Positions 28,631 to 59,823 of a DNA stretch of 64,000 nucleotides are shown in pieces. A program made the position numbers and the translations under genes. The stretch spans positions 185,766 to 249,765 of the forward strand of contig JAHFLF010000001.1 in assembly GCA_023255625.1 (NCBI GenBank), written 5' to 3'. The notes under the pieces are model-generated. The model had not been told where the DNA came from. It searched no databases and worked only from the letters and a program-made list of their open reading frames with translations. Source of the DNA: Candidatus Harrisonbacteria bacterium. Its GTDB lineage: Bacteria > Patescibacteriota > Minisyncoccia > UBA6257 > 1-14-0-10-44-23. Positions within the stretch are counted from its first letter, which is position 1; every line of letters starts with the position of its first letter.

Positions 28631-28793
28631 AAAACACTCAAAGTTGTATAGTAGAAATGTAGGTCCCCTGCACGGAAAAATACCGAGGATCCGTAAAGGG
28701 CATGGCAACTCAAACCGGTGAAAGGAGTCGACCGACCAAAGAGCCGTGAGTTCGTTCTGACCTTGTTCTGACCAGTCCACACACGGAGGTTCG

Positions 28794-29018
28794 ATGCCCA
28801 TCGACGACGATCGTGATCGCGCTACCTGCCTAGTGCTCCTTGCCTATCGCGTGCTGCTTGCGTGTAGGAAAAAGGGGTACAGAGGTCCGCTACTCATGAC
28901 GGAATCGATGGACCGCGCCTGGTACTACCACCTGGGAGCGAAGCGGGCTCTCTTCGGAGAGTTCGAGTCAGCGGTGATGGAGGAAGTCTTCCAAGCACTG
29001 CATCTTCGCTACAAGTAG
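28794..29018 (+). CDS. Hypothetical small protein (74 aa) in GC-rich segment
   Basis: SD acggagg 6 nt upstream. Possible TTGGAT-18-TATAGT promoter at 28625-28653 gives a ~134-nt GC-rich leader. No similarity recognised. Confidence 0.3.
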   Translation: MPIDDDRDRATCLVLLAYRVLLACRKKGYRGPLLMTESMDRAWYYHLGAKRALFGEFESAVMEEVFQALHLRYK

Positions 29019-29164
29019 TATATCCGGGCGCACCGGCCCTGTGCGATATCGTGGAGCGCCACAACCGCCGATGGCAATCAGGCGCCAACCGCATAGCTGG
29101 TACTGGTCCACATTCCAGCCGGCGAACCCCTTGCGGGATTCGCCGGCACCAAACTCTACTTTAA

Positions 29165-29458
29165 ATGACAAAACGCAATTGGAATAACGATAAGACAAAT
29201 GAACTGGTCGGCGCGCTTCTCTCGTTAAAAAACGCGACCGACATGAAAAGTTTTTTACGCGATCTACTCACCGAGGATGAAATTATTGAATTTGGAAAAC
29301 GCTGGGAGGCGGCCCGCATGCTGGCTGCCGGCGTTCCCTACTCTGAAATAAGCAAAGCCGTTGGCCTCTCGTCCCGCACCGTGGCACGGGTGGCGCAGTG
29401 GTTTCACGCCGGCAAAGGCGGCTACAAACTCGCCATCGGCTCACTCAAAAGAAAATAA
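29165..29458 (+). CDS. TrpR-like YerC/YecD-family DNA-binding protein
   Basis: LLTEDEIIEFGKRWEAARMLAAGVPYSEISKAVGLSSRTVARVAQWFHAGKGGYK matches the YerC/YecD (TrpR-related) family pattern. Confidence 0.7.
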   Translation: MTKRNWNNDKTNELVGALLSLKNATDMKSFLRDLLTEDEIIEFGKRWEAARMLAAGVPYSEISKAVGLSSRTVARVAQWFHAGKGGYKLAIGSLKRK

Positions 29459-29496: not shown

Positions 29497-29528
29497 TTGA
29501 CGCTAGCACTTTACTATAGTAAAGTGCT
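29497..29528 (+). promoter_or_regulatory. Promoter-like -35 TTGACG overlapped by a perfect 24-bp palindrome AGCACTTTACTATAGTAAAGTGCT (CIRCE-like operator)
   Basis: Self-complementary 29505-29528. Half-sites TAGCACT / AGTGCTA with 9-nt spacer resemble CIRCE TTAGCACTC-N9-GAGTGCTAA. Confidence 0.5.
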
Positions 29529-29649
29529 ATTTATGACTGTTTTCACAACACAACTGCATCATCTGCATACCGATACCCTCCCCGGGAGTGGTTTGTGTTG
29601 ATTGAGTAGTTACGCTTACAAATAGCGCACACGAATAGAATCAACCCAA

Positions 29650-29700
29650 TCCCCTCCTGAAAACTCCGGCGCGTCGCCGGAAAACTGGGAGGGGTTTTGA
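29650..29700 (+). terminator. Leader-embedded intrinsic terminator/attenuator 25 nt upstream of the 29719 CDS
   Basis: cccctcc-tgaaaactccggcgcgtcgccggaaaactg-ggagggg-ttttgattt. An upstream ccctcccc (29572-29579) could form an alternative antiterminator. Confidence 0.5.
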
Positions 29701-29718
29701 TTTGGGAAAGGCAAGGCA

Positions 29719-30426
29719 ATGACTAAGGAACTTGTCCGAGTGAAGCTGCTCATCTTCGCCATCGCACCGAACGAAAAGGAGCGACGGACCGCTGCCGCAA
29801 GTCACACGGCCGAAGGGTATATGCGTGATGGCCCACAGATGCTCGGGATCTGTCTGGCAACCTTCGACCAACTGCCTCAGCTGCTCGCGGCCGTCCGGAA
29901 GACTGAAGAGTTCAGGCGCGATGCCGCGGGTCGGGCGGAAAGCGAGGCTGGCAGGATGTTCGCTGCTGCACTGCGCAACGAATCGGATCGGGAAGAGTTC
30001 TATGCTCACACCGTCGCCATCGGCATCATGATGAGTATCGCCGCAGCTTGTCAGGATGCGGGCATGCTCTTCACGCCGGAATTCCCGCGCTACAACCTCC
30101 GCGCTGCCTCAGATACCTACATTAAGACATCCATGAAGGTGGTCCCAGGGATCACGATCTGCATCGGCCCGCATTTCCAGAAGGAGCATCCCTACCTGGT
30201 CATGATCTACGACAAGCCGGGGCTGCTCTGGTGCGGCGAGGCGGCCAAGCTCCCGGAGATCAACTTCGAGACCAGCGCGTGCACACCCGACCCAACGGAT
30301 GTCGCGTGGACGGAGTCCTACTACACCATGTTCTGCTACCACACCGGCATGAAGACCAAATGGCGTAAGAAGGACTCGCCATTCACCAGTGTCGGTGGTC
30401 ACGGCGGATCCTACGGCGGGCACTAG
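29719..30426 (+). CDS. Hypothetical protein (235 aa), GC-rich island gene 1
   Basis: High-GC codon usage. Gly/His-rich C-terminus SVGGHGGSYGGH. No family recognised. Confidence 0.45.
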   Translation: MTKELVRVKLLIFAIAPNEKERRTAAASHTAEGYMRDGPQMLGICLATFDQLPQLLAAVRKTEEFRRDAAGRAESEAGRMFAAALRNESDREEFYAHTVAIGIMMSIAAACQDAGMLFTPEFPRYNLRAASDTYIKTSMKVVPGITICIGPHFQKEHPYLVMIYDKPGLLWCGEAAKLPEINFETSACTPDPTDVAWTESYYTMFCYHTGMKTKWRKKDSPFTSVGGHGGSYGGH

Positions 30427-30462
30427 GCAACATCAACCCATAACTGAACGAAGGAGAATCAG

Positions 30463-31710
30463 ATGAACAAGGCGCTTCTCGTCGTCTACCCGGGCGGGCT
30501 CGCTGGCGGCGGTACGCTCCAGCAGATCCGCGCCAGCTACACCGACCTCGCCGCTCTGGCGGCGAGTCTCGGCATGAGGTTCGAGACGGCCTGGGATCCG
30601 CGCTCGAATCTGCCTGCGCCTACATTTCCGCTGGTCCTGGGCAGTGCCGGCTACTACGCCCGGCATCAGGAGCTCAAGCAGTGGGCAGGCGAGGTGCGCA
30701 CACGGCTGCACGAACAAGGCGTGAGCGAGCTGACGGTGTATGGCTTCGGGTACACCAGCTTCATCCCCTACGCCTTCGAAGGATACGACGATGTTCGGGT
30801 GATCTGGGGAGACTGCTCCCCGCCTGACACCGATGTTCTCGGCGGCGATCTCTCGTCGCGCTTCTACGGCAAGGCCTACGAACGGACGCGCGGCCTCTGC
30901 TACGGCTGGCATGAGGGAGGGCCACTCACGCGCCGGCCACTGATGTATTCGTACTCCATGACCGCGCAACCGTTTGGCAAGGAGTATGTCGGGTCTCTGC
31001 TGGCGCAGCGTCTCACAACTCCCGAACCGCTCGGTGGCGAGGGGGCGATCAGGATTGTGCTCTCGGCTTCAGACATCTGGTCGCCGAATGCAATCGGTGT
31101 CTGGATGACCGAGCAGCAGCACCGTGACACCGTTCTCCGGACGGCGCTTCTCATGGACGCCATTCGAACCTGCGCGCAGCAACTCGGGCGCAAGGTTGTC
31201 CTCTACGCGCACCCGACTCTTCGCAAGGTCAATGTTCCGACGCGCAGCTTCTATCCCAACCAGAGCGGACTGGAGGGATTTGCGGAGGCCGGAGGCATCA
31301 CCCTGGTGGACACGCACACGAGCGCGTGGACACCGGAGCAGTATCGGGCGCTCTTGCGAAGCGCCAACCTGGTCGTAACTCGCGCGTCGCATTCGGTAAC
31401 CTCTGCCGAATGTGCAGCGATGGGAATCCCCCAGGCACTCTGCCCCATGCCGTCAATGGGGTACATGAACGAAGGAGAGTTCACCTCTGACATTCGGGAC
31501 CGCGGGCTGGCCATGGTCCTCGATCCTCTGTCGCGGGGGCTGTGGCGACAGATCGCCACGGCGCTGACCGACGACAATCTGCGGCGCGACACCACCCGCC
31601 GCGCCTGCGAAGAGTTCGACAGGATCAATGACCGCCAGAACTTCTTCAAGAATCTAGCAACCCTCATCGAAGTTTCCTGGAGAAATTCAGATGACTACGA
31701 AGTAGCATAG
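30463..31710 (+). CDS. GT-B fold glycosyltransferase-like protein (GT1/GT28-like), GC-rich island gene 2
   Basis: N-terminal ALLVVYPGGLAGGGTLQQI (Gly-rich loop after beta1). C-terminal SANLVVTRASHSVTSAECAAMGIPQALCPMP resembles the GT1/MurG donor-binding motif. SD gaaggag upstream. Confidence 0.5.
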   Translation: MNKALLVVYPGGLAGGGTLQQIRASYTDLAALAASLGMRFETAWDPRSNLPAPTFPLVLGSAGYYARHQELKQWAGEVRTRLHEQGVSELTVYGFGYTSFIPYAFEGYDDVRVIWGDCSPPDTDVLGGDLSSRFYGKAYERTRGLCYGWHEGGPLTRRPLMYSYSMTAQPFGKEYVGSLLAQRLTTPEPLGGEGAIRIVLSASDIWSPNAIGVWMTEQQHRDTVLRTALLMDAIRTCAQQLGRKVVLYAHPTLRKVNVPTRSFYPNQSGLEGFAEAGGITLVDTHTSAWTPEQYRALLRSANLVVTRASHSVTSAECAAMGIPQALCPMPSMGYMNEGEFTSDIRDRGLAMVLDPLSRGLWRQIATALTDDNLRRDTTRRACEEFDRINDRQNFFKNLATLIEVSWRNSDDYEVA

Positions 31711-31718
31711 CAACCTGA

Positions 31719-31747
31719 CCCGGGCGGCGCTTGCAAGCGCCGCCCGG
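31719..31747 (+). terminator. GC hairpin between GT and GH84 genes (ccgggcggcgc-ttgcaa-gcgccgcccgg)
   Basis: 11-bp perfect GC stem with no clear U-run. May be a processing site or weak terminator. Confidence 0.35.
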
Positions 31748-31769
31748 ACAGACACCATACTTATATACT

Positions 31770-33314
31770 ATGCAGAAAAAATTATTCGGAATCGTTGAAG
31801 GATTCTTTTCAAGCCCGCTGCCGCTCTGGTCAAATTCAGAGCGTATTTCGATTATTCAACTTCTCGCAGAACAACCTTCTTTGATTAACGCATATCTTTA
31901 TTGCCCTAAAAATGATGTCTACGTAACTTCGGAATGGGCAACTCTATATACTCAAAAAAATATTAAGCCCATTATAAAAGCAGCACGATTATGCTCACGC
32001 ACTAATATCAATTTCTACTACGGCCTCAACCCAACTCTTACAGATTTCTCAGAAAGATCATCAAAAAATACGGCACGAAAGATTATTAAAAAATTAGAAC
32101 AACTTAGAACATTAGGCATAGACTCGTTTTGTCTCCTATTTGATGACATACCCTTTGCCTATAATATTCTTGCTGACGAAAAATCAATACGGGACGCACA
32201 AGCAGGCGCGGCACAAGCCATCATTGCCAATGTAGTGTACGATTGGCTCGGTAATAAACCGGGGGCACTACTGGTCTGCTCATCAGAATATTTTTTTACA
32301 CGCAAAACAAAATTTCTTGAGGCATTTGACAGCACTCTTAAAAAAGATATTCCTGTGCTCTGGACGGGGTCAGGCGTGTATGAAAAAAATCTCGGAAGCA
32401 GTACTGTTGTCGCGGCTCAAAATTCTATTGCCGCAGAGAGGCCCCTCATATGGTGGAACAATTATCCGGTTAATGATTGCGAACACATTCCTGGAACATT
32501 CCACTTCGGTGCTTTTAACGGCCCACCCATAAAAGCCTTCCAAAAACTAGATGGCATTTTTGTTAATCCCATGCGAGAAGCCATGCTGAATATAGGAGTG
32601 CTCGCGACATTCAAACAATACCTGGAAAATCCTAGACAATATAATCGCGATAGAGCACTTAGGGTGGTATGTACAGAAAAATTTGGTAAAGCGGGCAGGG
32701 CTCTCTACCGGCTTGGATCTTCATTCGCAGATAAAAATACGGTTGATGCTGAACCAAGAGAATATGCTAAAAAAATCCTCGCTGTAAAAACTAATGAGCA
32801 GCTACGGATTGTATATGCATCTATCAACGCGGACCAAAAACTTATTGAGGCATATAAAAAGAACGACGCTGACTCTGCGTGGGGATCATTTTGCTTGTAC
32901 ATAGCAATGCTTTTAAAGCCGCGCATCAAAGCAGCTATGCAAGTAGCTCAAACTAACAAGGCGGGCTTTGAGAAAATAACAGAGCCGTTACTTAGATTTC
33001 CTGTTGTAACCGAAAAACGCTACCTTACTAAAATCTATAAAACAATCATGGATAGGCAGAGGATGATCTCTGCCTGGCAAAACTTCGGGAATGTAGCATT
33101 ATTAAATGCCATTTCAAACCTCGGTATCCTCTATGGGAAATATAACGGGAAAAATCGTCTCTCTATCAGCAGTTCCGATGAAGCAATGTTGCGAAAAAAT
33201 ATCAAAATTACTATCAGGAAACAAAAGGAACTTCTAGTTAAGTATTGTTTAGTCGCCGATAAAATTAAAAAAATAAAAACACTAATAAGATGGTGGAATA
33301 TGAATGGTTATTGA
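31770..33314 (+). CDS. Glycoside hydrolase family 84 protein (O-GlcNAcase / beta-N-acetylglucosaminidase NagJ-like)
   Basis: LFGIVEGFFSSPLPLW, YLYCPKNDVY, FYYGLNPTLT, FCLLFDDIP (catalytic Asp-Asp), LLVCSSEYFF, RPLIWWNNYPVNDC, DGIFVNPMREA are the GH84 catalytic-domain motifs, in order. ATG at 31770 preferred over the TTG at 31731. Confidence 0.7.
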   Translation: MQKKLFGIVEGFFSSPLPLWSNSERISIIQLLAEQPSLINAYLYCPKNDVYVTSEWATLYTQKNIKPIIKAARLCSRTNINFYYGLNPTLTDFSERSSKNTARKIIKKLEQLRTLGIDSFCLLFDDIPFAYNILADEKSIRDAQAGAAQAIIANVVYDWLGNKPGALLVCSSEYFFTRKTKFLEAFDSTLKKDIPVLWTGSGVYEKNLGSSTVVAAQNSIAAERPLIWWNNYPVNDCEHIPGTFHFGAFNGPPIKAFQKLDGIFVNPMREAMLNIGVLATFKQYLENPRQYNRDRALRVVCTEKFGKAGRALYRLGSSFADKNTVDAEPREYAKKILAVKTNEQLRIVYASINADQKLIEAYKKNDADSAWGSFCLYIAMLLKPRIKAAMQVAQTNKAGFEKITEPLLRFPVVTEKRYLTKIYKTIMDRQRMISAWQNFGNVALLNAISNLGILYGKYNGKNRLSISSSDEAMLRKNIKITIRKQKELLVKYCLVADKIKKIKTLIRWWNMNGY

Positions 33315-36166: not shown

Positions 36167-39100
36167 TTACTGTAATTTGCCGAACTTAATTTCCATCCCA
36201 TCAAATAGCTTATTAGCTCCACTCTTGGCGACAACATCAATCGTCGCCTCAATAGATTTGAACGGCGCTTGGGCTACGGAAGAAGAAAAGCTACGCAAAT
36301 TTATATTAGTAAGACCATCGAGAGATTGTCGGACAATTAATCCTTCTTTCGAAGTCGGTAATTCTCTCCATCCGTTAGTCATCTTATTAAACCATGAAAG
36401 CCCTGTAGTGTAGTCACCCTCGATGACCTTGACCAAGTCTTTGCTGGCCAGTGGATTTGCAAGCGATTTTGCCGCTTTTACCGCAGATGTAACATCGGTA
36501 ATTTTTGCAACGGTCTTGGCAATTTCTGCGGCCTTTGCGGCAGCCGCCGCTGCCTGCTTTTCAATCGCTTTAAAATCCACCACAATTTTAGCGAACTGCT
36601 CATCTGCAGTCTTAATTACGGAATTGGCAGCATCCTTAACAATTGTTGAAGAAATAACTGCGGTATCCCAAGCCATCCAGGCGTTTATAGCCGTTGTGAC
36701 AGATGCCAAAGCCCACCGAAAATTATCAGCTCTTTCACCATTATTATCTTGGCCAATGAGCGTAATACTCAATTCATTTACAACGCCCACCGGAATGTCT
36801 ACTAGGAAGCCAATAATCGGAGTTCCCGGAGAAATAGAATTAGGGCTAATCGCCAATTGCTGCTGACTTATTTTCTTCTGAATATCAGCGATTTGCTGAA
36901 TAGCTGCTGCCTGCTCTTGACTTCCGCCGACAAGGCCTGCGTTGATCATTTGGACCGCAGCATCAGCCGTGCTCGCCCTACCAGATTTACTGATGAGTAC
37001 AAAAACATCAATAATTTTTTTCTCAAGAGTGGCTATCTGGCGTAGGTAAAGAAAAGTTTTCTCGAGAGATGATGGTGAGTTAATTTCCGAGAACAAAAGT
37101 TTAAGGTTGAATAGAGTGCCAGAGGCATCTTCTAAGAATTTTACGGTATCTTGGTTACTAACCAATTGGAGAATTGCTGTTTGCTGAAGCAACGCAGTGG
37201 CTATTGCTTGAGAATCGCGACCGATAGATTGCTTAAAGGTAGATTCCAGATCCACAAGCACCGGAAGGAGATATTTAGAATACTTGCTTCGTGCCTGCAA
37301 CCCCTCAACGCGAAGGGCAATGGCGGCCTGATTGATTAAAGCGATCTGCTCTGCAGTAATGGCGCGTTGTCCGTCTCGAACCATCATTAACAGATTGTCA
37401 GTTTGAACTTTCATCCGATCGATATCGCGAGGTAAGTTGGAAATCAAACTAGCCCTGATTCTATCCTGTGACCAACCAACTACTCCCGTTGACATTGATT
37501 TCAAAACAGGCGTAGCGGCAAGAATGAGTCGAACAAGGTATCTGTCGACCGCTTCTGAGACGAATGAGGTAGACGGAGTGCTCGTGCCAACAGCGCCGAT
37601 AGGGCCGGCAATTGTAGAGTGCGAATTATCTGTCGGCTCAAGCGGCGGTAGGAATAATAACGGAGAGGTGGTGGTTGAAGAAGCCGTCGGTGTTACCGGA
37701 GCAGTAACCGGTTTTGTGCTGGTTGCGACAACCGGAGCCGGTGCTGCAGTTGGCTGTGTAGTTGTCGGTGCAGCCGTAGTCGGGGTAGTAGATGTGGCAG
37801 CTGGTGCTGGGTCTGGGTTCGGAGCTGGCGCAACCGGATAACGAACATACTGGCTGTCATCGTAAAGTCCGGGCGTAGTCGCCCCCGATGGGGCATAACC
37901 AAGCGCCCTCTCAAGATCAGTAAATGAAACTACCGAGAAAAGTTCGCTCGCCGCGAAAACAATCGTTTGCGGAGCACCTGCTACTCCGCCCTGCGAAGCG
38001 GAAATAATACCGCCAACATAGCTCGGCGCCAGGAAATGATACTGGATTTGCGAAGACCGGCGATACTCCTCAGGAGTAGCGTCGCGAAAGCCGTGAGCTA
38101 GAGCTTCGTCGGTTGACCACGCGAGCCGAAGAATTCCATGGCCCGAATTCCAGGGAGAATTCATGTTGCCATTCACCGGCCCCCGCACCATCCCGTTGCA
38201 GGCAAGTTCCGCGAGCGGCGTAAACCGCTCGTCCCAACCCTGCGGATACACACCAGTGGCCCCGCCGTTCATCATCGGCTTGACTGCGCCACTTTTAAGC
38301 GATTGATAGATCGAGTCAAGTTTTCCGAATGTTAAACCATACTTGAAAGTCTGCTCCGGCGCAGGCGGTGAAATCGGAGTAATTGCTGCTTGGTCAAGCA
38401 TCTGCCGTACTTGTTCGTATGTTATAGATTCACCAAGATTATTTCCCAGGAGAGAAAGACATTCTGGTGCGAGTCCCGCAGTAGGAATACCTGGCCCGGA
38501 CTGAATAAAATTAAAGCTTTGCCCAGCCACAGTCGCGCCCGCACTACGACTTTCCAACGCAGTATGTTGAGGGAACACATAGGTCACTGTGCCACTGCCG
38601 CGCAGCCCATTCAGATACGGAGTACCAGTCCAGCTCGAATTAATGTTATGTGGCCACGGGCCAGGTTGGGCCGTACCAAACGTATTCCAAAAATTAGTAG
38701 CGGACCACTCGCACCCCGGTGACGTTGTCACGGTGATTTTTCTGCTGCCGCCGGACGGCCCAACCTGCAAGTCATCAGCCGACACATCATATGTACAAGG
38801 CATAACATTGACGGTGATCGACTTGGTCACCTTGTCGCCCACTGCGCTGGTAGCCGTAATCGTATAGGTTGTTGTACCGCTTGGTTTTGCATCATACCCG
38901 CCGCTCTCACCCACATTGCCAATCCCTTGATTAAGCGAGGTCACTTGCGCATTTGTCGTGGTCCACGAAAGCGTTGCGACTTCGCCTGGCCTGACCGTAG
39001 TTGGACTTACGGAAAGATCTGCACGAAGCACGCCGTCTGACTGAATCACCTTGATCTCTCGGTTGGCAATCGTCAGAATTGCAGTTCGTGAATACGAATT

Positions 39101-39415
39101 ATAATTTGCCTGTATATCAAAGCCGATCGTAGCACTACCCTTTCGCCCAAAGCCAATATTAAGCCACTGGGTGTTATACAACACCGTACCTTGAGTATCA
39201 ATCGACCAGTAGCAGTCTGGCTGCGTTGATACCGTAATCCAGTATGTCCCCATCTTCGGACCAACATTGATCGTGCTGGGACCGGAGACATCGTAACTGC
39301 ACGAAACAGCTGATGCCACCGGAATATTTAGCGCCAAGGGAGAAAACAAAAAGTTCAGAACAAAGAGGATGAAAAAGATATTTTTTAGATTTCGACTTTG
39401 GAGTGTATATTTCAT
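36167..39415 (-). CDS. Large secreted/cell-surface protein (signal peptide, repeated Cys-bracketed Ig/BACON-like beta domains, Pro/Thr-rich linker, C-terminal alpha-helical region)
   Basis: 1082 aa. N-terminal FFILFVLNFLFSPLALNIPVASA. Repeated C-x-Y-D-V-S...C-x-W-S modules. PAPNPDPAPAATSTTPTTAAPTTTQPTAAPAP linker. Confidence 0.6.
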   Translation of the reverse strand: MKYTLQSRNLKNIFFILFVLNFLFSPLALNIPVASAVSCSYDVSGPSTINVGPKMGTYWITVSTQPDCYWSIDTQGTVLYNTQWLNIGFGRKGSATIGFDIQANYNSYSRTAILTIANREIKVIQSDGVLRADLSVSPTTVRPGEVATLSWTTTNAQVTSLNQGIGNVGESGGYDAKPSGTTTYTITATSAVGDKVTKSITVNVMPCTYDVSADDLQVGPSGGSRKITVTTSPGCEWSATNFWNTFGTAQPGPWPHNINSSWTGTPYLNGLRGSGTVTYVFPQHTALESRSAGATVAGQSFNFIQSGPGIPTAGLAPECLSLLGNNLGESITYEQVRQMLDQAAITPISPPAPEQTFKYGLTFGKLDSIYQSLKSGAVKPMMNGGATGVYPQGWDERFTPLAELACNGMVRGPVNGNMNSPWNSGHGILRLAWSTDEALAHGFRDATPEEYRRSSQIQYHFLAPSYVGGIISASQGGVAGAPQTIVFAASELFSVVSFTDLERALGYAPSGATTPGLYDDSQYVRYPVAPAPNPDPAPAATSTTPTTAAPTTTQPTAAPAPVVATSTKPVTAPVTPTASSTTTSPLLFLPPLEPTDNSHSTIAGPIGAVGTSTPSTSFVSEAVDRYLVRLILAATPVLKSMSTGVVGWSQDRIRASLISNLPRDIDRMKVQTDNLLMMVRDGQRAITAEQIALINQAAIALRVEGLQARSKYSKYLLPVLVDLESTFKQSIGRDSQAIATALLQQTAILQLVSNQDTVKFLEDASGTLFNLKLLFSEINSPSSLEKTFLYLRQIATLEKKIIDVFVLISKSGRASTADAAVQMINAGLVGGSQEQAAAIQQIADIQKKISQQQLAISPNSISPGTPIIGFLVDIPVGVVNELSITLIGQDNNGERADNFRWALASVTTAINAWMAWDTAVISSTIVKDAANSVIKTADEQFAKIVVDFKAIEKQAAAAAAKAAEIAKTVAKITDVTSAVKAAKSLANPLASKDLVKVIEGDYTTGLSWFNKMTNGWRELPTSKEGLIVRQSLDGLTNINLRSFSSSVAQAPFKSIEATIDVVAKSGANKLFDGMEIKFGKLQ

Positions 39416-48784: not shown

Positions 48785-50494
48785 ATGGTTGAACTCCCGC
48801 TAGAAAGACTGAAAAAAATACTCATCGAAGATGGCATCGTCACCGATGCGCGCTTTGAAGAATTAGTCGGAGACTCGATGCGAATCGGCCAGGGAGTTGC
48901 GTCGCTACTCATCAGTAAAAATATAATTACTGATGAGTACTACATGAACCTGCTTTCCAGGTTTTATGGCGTACCGATAGCCACGCTAGACCCGGGCAGC
49001 GCCAACGAAGAGTCATTAAGGATGCTCACTGAAGATTTTGCCAGAGAGAAAAAGGTGGCTATTTTCAAGAAAGAGCCAAATGGCTCGCTGGATGTAGCAA
49101 TGGAGGACCCGAGCGACCTGACCACTATTGAATATCTGCAGACTAAATTCCAGCAAAAAGTAATCCCCTTCCTGGTCTCCTCGGCCAGTCTGGCCAGAAT
49201 CTTTGCCTTTTACGGCAAAGAGCAGGTTGAAGGATTTCGAAAAATAATTCAAGACAATATCGGTGCCTCGCTGCAATTAACGGGCAAGAAAGCGGCCGAG
49301 GCGGCCGTTCAGGTGCCAATTATTGCGATTACCGACAATATCATCTCTTATGCTGTCTCTCTGCGCGCTTCAGACATTCACATTGAAGCCCTGGAAAGAG
49401 AAATTCTGATCCGATACCGCGTTGACGGAATTTTACACGAAATAATCCGTATCCAAAAAGAAATCCATCCGGCCATTGTTGCCCGTTTTAAAATTCTCGC
49501 GGGTATGAAACTAGACGAGCACACGAATCCGCAGGACGGAAGATTCCGCTACAAGATTGGCACAGAAAATGTCGACATCCGTGTTTCCATTCTCCCGACC
49601 TTATACGGCGAAAAGGTTGAGTTGCGTTTGCTGACCAGCGCCGGGCACATTCTTTCCTTCGAAGAACTGGGAATGTCGCCGGAGATCATTAAGTCGCTCA
49701 CTGATAATGTTACAAAAAGTTACGGAATCGTCCTTGTTACGGGGCCAACCGGATCCGGTAAAAGCACCACATTGTATTCAATCTTGAATCTAATCAATCG
49801 GCCGGAGGTAAATGTTATTACGGTTGAAGACCCTGTCGAATATGATATTAAATATGTTAATCAAACCCAGATCAACGAGCAGGCCGGCACCACCTTCGCC
49901 TCGGCGCTGCGGGCAATTTTGCGGCAAGACCCAAATGTCATCATGGTTGGTGAAATCCGAGACGAAGAAACCGCCGAGATCTCTGTGCATGCGGCTCTGA
50001 CCGGCCACATGGTTCTCTCTTCGCTACACACCAACGATGCGCCGACAGCAATCCCCCGCATGTTCGATATGCATGTCGCTCCATTTCTCCTTTCTGCTGT
50101 CTTAAACGCAGTCCTCGCCCAACGACTCGTACGCAGAATTTGCTATGACTGCTTGTATTCATACCCAACCCCGATTGAAATCAAAAGAGTGATTGAGGGA
50201 GAGATAAAAGATTTGGGACTAGCCCTTGATGTACAAGTCCCAAAAACTCTTTTTAAGGGCAAAGGATGCCCAAATTGCGGACACACCGGCTATCGTGGTC
50301 GAATGGGTATTTACGAACTCTTAAAAATTACCGAAGAATTACGAACTTATATTGTCGGCGACAACTTTACGCTAGAAAAACTTCGGCAACTGGCCCGTTC
50401 CGGCGGCATGCAAACCATGTTCGAAGATGGTCTGCTCAAAGCCGGGCAGGGTAAAACAACGATTGAGGAGGTGCTTCGCGTGATTCGTGAATAA
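48785..50494 (+). CDS. pilB: Type IV pilus assembly ATPase PilB (GspE family)
   Basis: N-terminal GSPII_E domain, Walker A VTGPTGSGKSTT, Asp box, Walker B IMVGEIRDEETA, His box LSSLHTND, tetracysteine CYDCL...CPNCG. Confidence 0.9.
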   Translation: MVELPLERLKKILIEDGIVTDARFEELVGDSMRIGQGVASLLISKNIITDEYYMNLLSRFYGVPIATLDPGSANEESLRMLTEDFAREKKVAIFKKEPNGSLDVAMEDPSDLTTIEYLQTKFQQKVIPFLVSSASLARIFAFYGKEQVEGFRKIIQDNIGASLQLTGKKAAEAAVQVPIIAITDNIISYAVSLRASDIHIEALEREILIRYRVDGILHEIIRIQKEIHPAIVARFKILAGMKLDEHTNPQDGRFRYKIGTENVDIRVSILPTLYGEKVELRLLTSAGHILSFEELGMSPEIIKSLTDNVTKSYGIVLVTGPTGSGKSTTLYSILNLINRPEVNVITVEDPVEYDIKYVNQTQINEQAGTTFASALRAILRQDPNVIMVGEIRDEETAEISVHAALTGHMVLSSLHTNDAPTAIPRMFDMHVAPFLLSAVLNAVLAQRLVRRICYDCLYSYPTPIEIKRVIEGEIKDLGLALDVQVPKTLFKGKGCPNCGHTGYRGRMGIYELLKITEELRTYIVGDNFTLEKLRQLARSGGMQTMFEDGLLKAGQGKTTIEEVLRVIRE

Positions 50495-50614
50495 TCGAGA
50501 GCTACGAATAACGAATCATTTCGCGAAAGTACGAATTGACTACTTGAATTATCTGATATACTTAGCAGTAGGTTTTGTTCGTACTTTCGTAAAACATTCG
50601 TAATTCGTAGATCT

Positions 50615-51826
50615 ATGCTATTCCACTACACTGCCACTACAGCCGATAACCACACTATCGAAGGCAACCAGGAGGCGCAAAGCACCGCCGAACTGCTCGC
50701 ACTTCTATCCAGCCGCAACCTGAAACCAATTACCGTCAAACAGGTAAAAGAGGCGGAGCGGCGCAGCAATCACAGTGGGCTTTTGCATACTGCTATCACG
50801 GTCAACGATAAAATCTTTTTGACAAAATACCTGTCGATCATGCTCAAGGTCGGCATTGATCTTTTCCAGGCGATCAATATTTTGATTAGCGATTTTAAAC
50901 AACCCGGACTGCGCGCGTTACTGACTGAAACCAGAGAGAGCTTGGAGGCCGGCCGACCTTTCTATAGCACCTTTGCAAATTATCCCCGGTACTTTTCAAA
51001 TGTCTTCGTAAACTTAGTTAAAGCCGGAGAGGCCTCCGGAAATTTGGACAATGTCTTTGACACGCTCTCATTAAACTTCGCCAAAGAAAAAGAACTCCGG
51101 GGTAAAATCCGGGCCGCGCTAGTTTATCCAATGATGCTTTTCGCTCTCTCTATCTTGATTCTTTTAGGACTTGTAACTTTCGCACTGCCTAAACTGGCCA
51201 ATGTGTTTACCGGTAGCGGTTTTAACCCTCCGGCATTTAGTCGAATTGTTTTCGGCGTCGGCGGATTTGTTAATTCTTATATCTGGGTGATTTTGGGCGG
51301 GGGTATCTTAATCGTCATCGGTCTCATCGTTGCCAGTCGCACATCCTCTGGACTAGCCATGCTGAATCGCATACTGCTCGCAACGCCAATCATCAAAAAT
51401 ATAAAATACAATTTGGCGATTCAAAGGTTTGCCAGCACTCTTTCTTCGCTTCTAAAAGCCGGCGTGCCGATTCTCGAGGCGCTGCGGATTACTGCGGATA
51501 CAGTCGGACATCCGGACTTGCAAGCAAGTTTAGAGCGGATTGCAAATCAGGGACTGGCGCACGGCTTAACGCTGGGCGATGCATTCCGTAGGGAAACCTC
51601 TTTTCCGGCCGTTGTTACCAACCTGGTTGCCATCTCTGAAAAAGCCGGCCACCTGGATGAAATTTTAGAAACTCTCTCTCGTTTCTATGAAAGCGAAATT
51701 GATTCTGCAATTAAAAACTCGATAACTTTTATCGAGCCAATCCTGCTGCTCATCATTGGTGTCGTAATTGGAACAATCGCCCTCGCCATCATCGTGCCAA
51801 TCTATCAGCTCGTCGGCAAGTTCTAA
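50615..51826 (+). CDS. pilC: Type IV pilus inner-membrane platform protein PilC (GspF family)
   Basis: Two GspF repeats (LSIMLKVGIDLFQAINIL... and LSSLLKAGVPILEALRITADTVG...), 3 TM segments. Confidence 0.85.
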   Translation: MLFHYTATTADNHTIEGNQEAQSTAELLALLSSRNLKPITVKQVKEAERRSNHSGLLHTAITVNDKIFLTKYLSIMLKVGIDLFQAINILISDFKQPGLRALLTETRESLEAGRPFYSTFANYPRYFSNVFVNLVKAGEASGNLDNVFDTLSLNFAKEKELRGKIRAALVYPMMLFALSILILLGLVTFALPKLANVFTGSGFNPPAFSRIVFGVGGFVNSYIWVILGGGILIVIGLIVASRTSSGLAMLNRILLATPIIKNIKYNLAIQRFASTLSSLLKAGVPILEALRITADTVGHPDLQASLERIANQGLAHGLTLGDAFRRETSFPAVVTNLVAISEKAGHLDEILETLSRFYESEIDSAIKNSITFIEPILLLIIGVVIGTIALAIIVPIYQLVGKF

Positions 51827-59364: not shown

Positions 59365-59823
59365 ATGTCGAAGCAAACACTGACTGTCGTAACCGAGCTC
59401 AAGCTCGGCAGAGTAACCAGGGCGCATGTGGCGTCCGTCGAGCAACTCCGCGCGAATCGCGAAGAGGCCTGCAGCTACTCTCGCCTGCTCATGCCGAGGC
59501 AGATCAGATGGTCGCTCGGGACAATCCAAATCGTCTGCGCTACCGCCGAAGAAGTTCAGGGTATCGGCGTTGGTGTCTGGGAGGCGGTCGCGGCGGCGAC
59601 ACTGCTCGATCAGAAGGAGGATCTCCTAGAAGTTTACTTCTGCCCGCCAAAGGCGGAGTGGGAGGAGATCACCTTCATGCCCCTGGATCAGTGCGACAAG
59701 CGTGCTGTCGTATCCTTGGTCACAATATATCGTCGAGAACCGCGCAGGAACCGACGATGCCTATATCTACGCCCCTCTGTACCACGACTGCGCAAGGAAC
59801 AACTCTTCGCGGTTCGTATCTGA
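59365..59823 (+). CDS. Hypothetical protein (152 aa) in GC-rich insertion between rpsU and argH
   Basis: Perfect SD aaggaggagag before the ATG. GC-rich codon usage. No family recognised. Confidence 0.45.
   Translation: MSKQTLTVVTELKLGRVTRAHVASVEQLRANREEACSYSRLLMPRQIRWSLGTIQIVCATAEEVQGIGVGVWEAVAAATLLDQKEDLLEVYFCPPKAEWEEITFMPLDQCDKRAVVSLVTIYRREPRRNRRCLYLRPSVPRLRKEQLFAVRI

Follow-up and report, generated by a model that had tools for sequence, protein, structure and literature searches.

In the metazoan OGT/OGA system, a single writer and a single eraser act on beta-linked O-GlcNAc (O-linked N-acetylglucosamine). Operons of the draT-draG type encode a modifying enzyme and its hydrolase for reversible ADP-ribosylation. 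In bacteria, one complete O-GlcNAc system has been reported, that of Thermobaculum terrenum, which comprises the TPR-containing GT41 enzyme TtOGT and the GH84 enzyme TtOGA, encoded on separate chromosomes; an apparent absence of modified proteins was reported by its authors (PMC4683255). Here, we analyzed a 64,000-nucleotide stretch of Candidatus Harrisonbacteria bacterium (GenBank assembly GCA_023255625.1, contig JAHFLF010000001.1, positions 185,766–249,765 of the forward strand; hereafter the window, numbered from its first letter). It contains a gene for a 415-amino-acid (aa) protein, predicted to be a glycosyltransferase (GT) of GT-B fold, directly followed by a gene for an O-GlcNAcase-like protein of family GH84, both downstream of a yerC-like gene. 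A search of the literature available to us on GH84 or O-GlcNAc cycling in the candidate phyla radiation (CPR)/Patescibacteria returned nothing relevant.

The locus shares with T. terrenum the occurrence, within one organism, of a predicted GT-B transferase and a presumably cytoplasmic GH84 enzyme, which lacks a signal peptide, combines a catalytic domain with a C-terminal helical bundle and has TtOGA (PDB entry 5diy) as its best solved match. It differs in that the 415-aa protein belongs to an orphan family without TPR or GT41 signature, and in that its gene directly adjoins the GH84 gene and is accompanied by a conserved candidate regulator gene, whereas the T. terrenum genes are unlinked. 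With the metazoan system it would share the logic of one writer and one eraser on beta-O-GlcNAc, and its GH84 domain aligns with human OGA, but a HAT-like domain and a GT41 enzyme are missing and the genes lie together in an operon-like arrangement. Operons of the draT-draG type likewise hold a modifying enzyme and a reversing hydrolase side by side, in a regulatory cycle acting on an intracellular protein; differing in chemistry and folds, they are a precedent for writer/eraser operons alone.

Gene order around the GH84 gene in relatives

A GT-B homologue with a PF07555 (GH84) gene directly downstream was identified in the window and in related loci L001/L002, L003, L004, L005, L006, L007, and L010, hence in all eight distinct loci carrying a GT-B homologue (8/8), with proteins that are 32–54% identical. 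The L010 member, a protein of 452 aa, was matched at E 1e-61 by hhalign. Six loci were found from GH84 homologues instead (L012 and L013 being the same locus), and a partner gene lies directly upstream of GH84 in each of them (6/6), belonging to the GT-B family in L010 and to a second family in L011, L012, L014, L015, and L093. The juxtaposition of GT and GH84 genes, on which an earlier, sequence-only reading of this DNA had built, is therefore not incidental. In L003, L012, L015, and L093, the two genes are separated by as little as 1–14 nt, which suggests co-translation.

Members of the second family are mutually related and contain a conserved D-x-D motif (MDADT, ADDDT). They are unrelated to the GT-B family, to which hhalign found no match. 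One of four members matched PF00535 (GT2) below threshold (21.5 bits against a cut-off of 23.3, E 2.5e-4), a PDB profile search returned spurious TALE repeats alone, phmmer and NCBIfam searches were negative, and comparison with SpsA via hhalign, using an approximate query sequence, gave no match. In other lineages, this unrelated D-x-D family takes the place of the GT-B gene upstream of GH84.

As a control, 77 non-CPR GH84 loci from genomes of the Genome Taxonomy Database (GTDB) were inspected, and neither partner family was present in any of them. At nine of these loci, one or two neighboring open reading frames (ORFs) were scanned, which contain no glycosyltransferase domain and encode unrelated functions. 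Because the source names given for relatives are Moraniibacteriota, Amesbacteria, Collierbacteria, and Parcubacteria, and the longest contig extends over 601,890 bp, we place the module, consisting of regulator-like gene, GT, and GH84, in CPR/Patescibacteria-like bacteria, in which it is conserved and to which it is specific. Pairwise identities of GT and GH84 proteins are weakly correlated (Pearson r 0.38, p 0.045; Spearman not significant), which is compatible with co-inheritance and not decisive. Two loci harbor further genes beyond GH84, a GHMP-family kinase gene 3' of it in L001 (4817–5827), and genes for an MFS transporter and an APH-family kinase downstream in L093 (9443–11659); although not conserved across loci, they may reflect a link to GlcNAc salvage.

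The GH84 enzyme and its GT-B partner

The GH84 gene (31770–33314, + strand) encodes a 514-aa protein with a catalytic domain and a predicted C-terminal helical region. Mechanical calling places the start of this third ORF at a TTG codon at 31731; the public protein collection holds the 514-aa form starting at 31770. PF07555 covers residues 20–318 of the TTG ORF with 186.4 bits against a cut-off of 25 (E 9.5e-55). The catalytic DD dyad that the sequence-only reading had located in FCLLFDDIP was confirmed by alignment to solved O-GlcNAcases, where FCLLFDDIPF coincides with FAIFFDDID of 9qep and with the D120N position of TtOGA (5diy). Across 32 relatives, D125 of the dyad is invariant, D126 is at least 90% conserved, and the W-x-N-Y-P-V-N-D sugar-binding motif is invariant.

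Among solved structures, the intracellular T. terrenum OGA (5diy) comes closest, matched at E 6.5e-33 by the single sequence and at E 4.9e-67 by the family profile, the latter over positions 5–395 and thus into the C-terminal helical bundle. Matches to TtOGA and metazoan OGAs range from E 1e-33 to 1e-25, with human OGA at about 1e-25 for the single sequence and about 1e-54 for the family profile, the DD dyad being in place. The secreted enzymes Clostridium perfringens NagJ and Bacteroides thetaiotaomicron BtGH84 (BT_4395) share the GH84 catalytic domain and the dyad, but score more poorly than intracellular OGAs (E 1e-21 and 1e-15, respectively); they possess signal peptides along with additional N-terminal, CBM, or FN3 domains and act on host glycans, unlike the window protein, which begins at the catalytic domain. 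Judged by these alignments, the window enzyme groups with intracellular OGAs, not with secreted GH84s. In the alignment, its N-terminus already coincides with strand one of the catalytic domain, which leaves no room for a signal peptide, and the protein is probably cytoplasmic. At L006, the GH84 gene has seemingly been called short, as an ATG near 1411, ahead of the called start at 1723, yields MKNIKQSEKYFGIVEGF, a family-like N-terminus.

The upstream gene (30463–31710, + strand) is preceded at 8 nt by an AGGAG ribosome-binding site, and all homologues of its 415-aa product begin at the same Met in the family alignment. An AlphaFold2 model computed with an alignment of seven homologues (predicted local distance difference test, pLDDT, 84.8; predicted template modeling score, pTM, 0.87) displays two Rossmann-like alpha/beta domains with an inter-domain cleft. 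The protein is thus predicted to adopt a GT-B fold, in agreement with the hallmarks recognized beforehand from sequence. A Foldseek search with the model ranked UDP-GlcNAc 2-epimerase, GtfD, and MurG first; the top match was UDP-GlcNAc 2-epimerase 1v4v (E 2e-11), and many further epimerases followed. The fold does not fix the CAZy family or the stereochemistry of the protein.

At the sequence level, the family alignment contains the motifs GGLAGGGT, WGDCSPPDTD, SSDIWS, RASHSVTSAECAAMG-PQ, and PMP--GYMN. Of these, the RASHSVTSAECAAMG-PQ..PMP..GYMN stretch is invariant and can be aligned to the segment with which MurG and a GT1 rhamnosyltransferase bind their donor; within this alignment (RASHSVTSAE...GVPQ..PMP), a Glu matches a conserved Glu of the MurG segment. 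Searches with the single sequence returned matches to the MurG/GT28 C-terminal domain, all of them sub-threshold. PF04101, the GT28 C-terminal model, scored 15.1 bits against a cut-off of 22, and PF03033, its N-terminal counterpart, did not match; TIGR01133 reached 18.9 bits out of 250 required, indicating resemblance to the MurG family rather than membership of GT28. Weak sub-threshold matches to PF04101 recur in six of seven family members (best E 6e-5), and the family profile matched MurG 7d1i at E 0.017. None of the seven members matched the GT4 or GT41 models, which places the protein in neither family; the combination of a PF00534 (Glycos_transf_1) match with an E-x7-E motif that marks the retaining GT4 enzymes is absent, domain scans revealed no TPR repeats, and no Pfam or NCBIfam model reached its threshold for the family. 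Identity to inverting GT-B transferases of the MurG/GT28 and GT1 types is just 12–16%, and the N-terminal motifs FGYTSF, WGDCSPPDTD, and SSDIWS have no counterpart there. The C-terminal motif is of nucleotide-sugar-binding type, closest to GT28/GT1. Because of the MurG/GT1 segment alignment and the PF04101 matches, together with the absence of GT4 and GT41 matches, we predict with moderate confidence that the protein is an inverting, UDP-sugar-dependent enzyme. As in the GH84 enzyme, its N-terminus coincides with the opening strand of the catalytic domain; there is no room for a signal peptide, and a cytoplasmic location is likely. With both proteins starting in this way, processing of host glycans outside the cell, which the sequence-only reading had entertained, is disfavored.

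The GT-B family is small. A word-indexed search of 5.8 billion clusters returned seven clusters, and 55 cluster representatives were collected at E <= 0.001 among 1.84 billion proteins, most of them distant forms of 470–540 aa. No member was found in GTDB representative genomes, and JGI metagenome contigs contained just the already known locus.

Base composition and candidate control elements

The sequence-only reading had described the segment 29719–31710, which encodes the GT and, 5' of it, a 235-aa protein of unassigned function (29719–30426, + strand), as a GC-rich two-gene insert apparently imported from a high-GC donor beside a GH84 gene of genome-typical GC. The high GC of the segment is evident. 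Compared with 0.476 for the window, GC amounts to 0.599 in the 235-aa ORF and to 0.627 in the GT gene, the latter lying 5.2 standard deviations (SD) above all other 1.2-kb stretches, and the segment is the strongest GC outlier of the window. GC at third codon positions (GC3) is 0.757 and 0.759, respectively, against 0.493 +/- 0.049 in 47 other long ORFs. The description of the GH84 gene, by comparison, has to be corrected, as its GC3 of 0.368 is the lowest among 50 long window ORFs, of which the GC-rich upstream partner marks the highest. All three genes are therefore compositional outliers, with GH84 deviating in the direction opposite to the 235-aa ORF and the GT. The sole other high-GC3 outlier in the window is a 152-aa ORF (59365–59823, + strand; GC3 0.664) that overlaps other ORFs.

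The same contrast recurs in relatives. GH84 genes are AT-richer and upstream partners GC-richer than the surrounding sequence, and GC of the partner exceeds that of its GH84 gene in 12 of 12 distinct pairs, identifying the GC contrast as a trait of the module. Where yerC synteny is retained, GC3 of the GT gene is 0.76 in the window, 0.72 in L005, and 0.71 in L006, and that of the GH84 gene 0.37, 0.45, and 0.40, respectively, despite mutual protein identities of 42–44%. With proteins this far apart, synonymous sites are expected to be saturated and to have lost any donor signature, but the high GC3 has persisted. Among about 15 billion proteins, none came closer to the GT than 43% identity, and no close donor was found. 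Given the persistence of high GC3 in diverged relatives and the lack of a close donor, recent import of the GT gene is not supported, and its high GC is probably a long-standing property of the module.

A recent GC-rich island, made up of the 235-aa ORF and the GT gene and lying beside a resident GH84 gene by chance and without functional link, is accordingly improbable. It would account for the shared GC3 of 0.76 (5.4 SD above other ORFs of the window) with its sharp edges at hairpins, for the confinement of the 235-aa ORF to this genome, and for the Ala/Arg-rich, high-GC-like composition of some distant relatives of the GT family. Of the features of a recently acquired island, however, only atypical composition was found: the GT gene is not absent from the same position in relatives, since the order yerC-GT-GH84 is common to the window, L006, and L010, and signatures of mobility were not detected. 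The 64-kb window contains no tRNA gene, and no integrase was identified among the ORFs inspected around the locus, where flanking direct repeats were not searched for. Together with the adjacency at every GT-B locus, these observations largely refute the chance island as far as the GT gene is concerned. Of the presumed writer/eraser set, the coupling of GT and GH84 is thus strengthened by the comparative context, whereas the GC-rich import is not supported. A local GC excess need not mean recent horizontal transfer.

The 235-aa ORF shares the GC3 of the GT gene and is the sole genome-specific part of the presumed insert. When 5.8 billion clusters were searched by word index, it retrieved itself alone; it matched no Pfam, NCBIfam, PHROG, or PADLOC family, showed no similarity to the GT family in hhalign, and was not found in the related loci by six-frame tblastn. 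Its period-3 GC pattern is coding-like, most clearly in the second half (30019–30426), and a single-sequence AlphaFold model was unusable (pLDDT 41.5). The ORFan is a lineage-specific addition and does not constitute one unit with the GT gene. As it shares the reading frame of the GT gene, a single gene split by a stop codon was considered, and rejected in view of the 36-nt spacer with two in-frame stops, the GT gene's own AGGAG site, and the common start Met of the homologues.

The first gene of the module (29165–29458, + strand) encodes a 97-aa TrpR-like helix-turn-helix protein of the YerC/YecD type, matched by PF01371 (E 5e-15) and TIGR02531 (E 1e-14), both above cut-offs, and is a candidate regulator. 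Among ten loci with enough upstream sequence, six (the window, L005, L006, L010, L011, and L015), covering both partner types, have a yerC-like gene upstream of the partner-GH84 pair. Downstream of yerC in the window, a promoter-like TTGACG-17-TAAAGT element (29497–29525) coincides with a perfect 26-bp palindrome (29504–29529, + strand), formed by TAGCACTTTACTA and TAGTAAAGTGCTA, which is unique in the window and was matched in 0 of 100 shuffles. A like layout, TTGACA followed by ACTTTA...TAAAGT, is located just upstream of yerC in L010 (4090–4135) and L011 (2850–2915), so that the general scheme TTGACA/G then (C)ACTTTA...TAAAGT(G) lies downstream of yerC in the window and upstream of it in these two loci. 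Taken by itself, the short ACTTTA/TAAAGT pattern would not be unusual (0.89 occurrences expected per window), and the argument rests on its position. The palindrome is a candidate operator for the YerC/TrpR-like protein. Beyond this short promoter-palindrome similarity, no conserved RNA or DNA was found in the spacers of the related loci.

Two hairpins flank the coding segment. A terminator-like hairpin (29643–29710, + strand), CCCCTCC...GGAGGGG followed by TTTTGATTT, stands directly 5' of the 235-aa ORF, and is resembled by a CCCCCTCCC/GGGAGGGGG hairpin with TTTT located after yerC in L006. The 59-nt spacer between GT and GH84 contains a perfect 14-bp GC-rich hairpin (31720–31747, + strand; dG -30.7 kcal/mol) without U-tract. 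Strong hairpins (-20 to -40 kcal/mol) of non-conserved sequence are also present between partner and GH84 in L001, L004, L005, L006, L010, and L011. Such stem-loops, some with and some without a short T-run, recur in spacers of about 50 nt or more and are missing from those of <= 14 nt; they may act as partial terminators or as processing sites and so determine how much writer is made per eraser. The flanking spacers gave no Rfam match at E <= 1.

Several features elsewhere in the window were also recorded. Its sole Rfam match is a LOOT RNA (RF03000; 315–432, + strand; 79.4 bits against a gathering score of 46.4). The 534-nt ftsK-yerC spacer (28631–29164; GC 56%) has no Rfam match at E <= 1, its + strand folds better than shuffled sequence (z -3.96, 0 of 100 shuffles equal), and it encloses a 74-aa ORF (28794–29018); it could represent an unannotated structured RNA or a small gene. 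A 1082-aa protein encoded at 36167–39415 (- strand), with an N-terminal hydrophobic segment and a Pro/Thr/Ala-rich linker, is probably a surface protein, and a type IV pilus/type II secretion system gene set is located at 48785–51826.

A proposed GlcNAc add/remove cycle and its alternatives

We tentatively favor a cytoplasmic module in which the GT would install beta-linked GlcNAc and the GH84 enzyme would take it off. Inverting GT-B chemistry yields a beta-linkage, which is the linkage cleaved by GH84 enzymes, and this is why beta-linked GlcNAc is the predicted product. The GT would use a UDP-sugar, most likely UDP-GlcNAc, with inversion, and place GlcNAc on an intracellular acceptor; its removal by GH84 would render the mark reversible. 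The YerC-like protein would control transcription via the ACTTTA/TAAAGT palindrome, and the hairpin between GT and GH84 would set the expression ratio of both genes. The acceptor may be a protein, which we favor weakly and regard as less probable than the add/remove coupling as such.

Several points weigh against this proposal. Both the adding and the removing activity, as well as donor, acceptor, and stereochemistry, are predictions; all GT28 matches remain below curated thresholds, and the second partner family has a single GT2 match, likewise sub-threshold. A distant GT-B relative, P0088, is not encoded beside a GH84 gene. The opposite GC3 extremes of the GT and GH84 genes are without explanation. 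Finally, glycoconjugate turnover could be served just as well by an operon that combines writer and eraser. In that case the GT, with chemistry like that of MurG or monogalactosyldiacylglycerol (MGDG) synthase, would build a beta-GlcNAc-containing small molecule, lipid, or envelope precursor, and GH84 would trim, recycle, or proof-read it, or salvage scavenged GlcNAc, with no regulatory mark involved. The closeness of the C-terminal motif to MurG/GT28 speaks for such a role, as do sugar-related neighbors, namely the GHMP kinase of L001, the APH-family kinase and MFS transporter of L093, CofD and HAD genes in L004, and Mur ligase and PBP (penicillin-binding protein) genes in L011. CPR bacteria rely on scavenging, which fits as well. 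None of these neighbors is conserved across loci, however; the yerC-like gene alone is. Furthermore, the GH84 enzyme is nearer to protein O-GlcNAcases than to glycan-degrading GH84s, and the GT model showed no feature suggestive of membrane association, for which it was not specifically tested. Overall, we consider glycoconjugate metabolism possible but rather unlikely.

Two further explanations assign other activities to the pair. The structural matches of the 415-aa protein, headed by epimerase 1v4v, would suit a non-transferase, either a UDP-GlcNAc 2-epimerase-like enzyme or a PseG/NeuC-like hydrolase, acting with GH84 in the processing of GlcNAc-derived metabolites. This is improbable, given that no epimerase (PF02350) or PseG family match was obtained for the protein at the sequence level, that its motif fits transferases (MurG, GT1 rhamnosyltransferase), and that the alternative partner family carries a D-x-D motif typical of GT-A transferases. 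By analogy with DarT/DarG or Tre1/Tri1, the genes might instead form an effector/immunity or toxin/antidote pair, in which a target, whether in a cell of a host or competitor or within the producer, would be glycosylated and inactivated by the GT, with GH84 undoing the modification to protect the producer. A compact writer and eraser unit of patchy distribution with variable flanks, a constant eraser combined with an exchangeable writer family, and the atypical composition of both genes would be in line with this; it is nevertheless very improbable, as PADLOC and PHROG gave no match and domain scans revealed neither a secretion signal nor a toxin-delivery domain. Moreover, in known toxin/antidote pairs the reversing enzyme is mostly encoded by the upstream or a tightly coupled gene. 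A role in anti-phage defense was rejected, there being no PADLOC match.

With respect to the add/remove cycle, a more far-reaching proposal, which we regard as doubtful, is that protein GlcNAc cycling evolved in CPR bacteria independently of GT41, as a minimal system encoded by an operon, in which an OGA-like eraser would be combined with interchangeable writers from two unrelated, uncharacterized families under the control of the adjacent YerC/TrpR-like protein. The latter might itself be a target of GlcNAc modification. If true, no O-GlcNAc-type signaling module more compact than this would be known, and it would be the first from ultra-small symbiotic bacteria. The locus further points to two possible new glycosyltransferase families. 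It also suggests a candidate regulator and operator. By physically coupling an OGA-like gene to a presumed transferase partner across diverged genomes, it makes the role of intracellular bacterial GH84 enzymes approachable through what one protein adds and the other removes.

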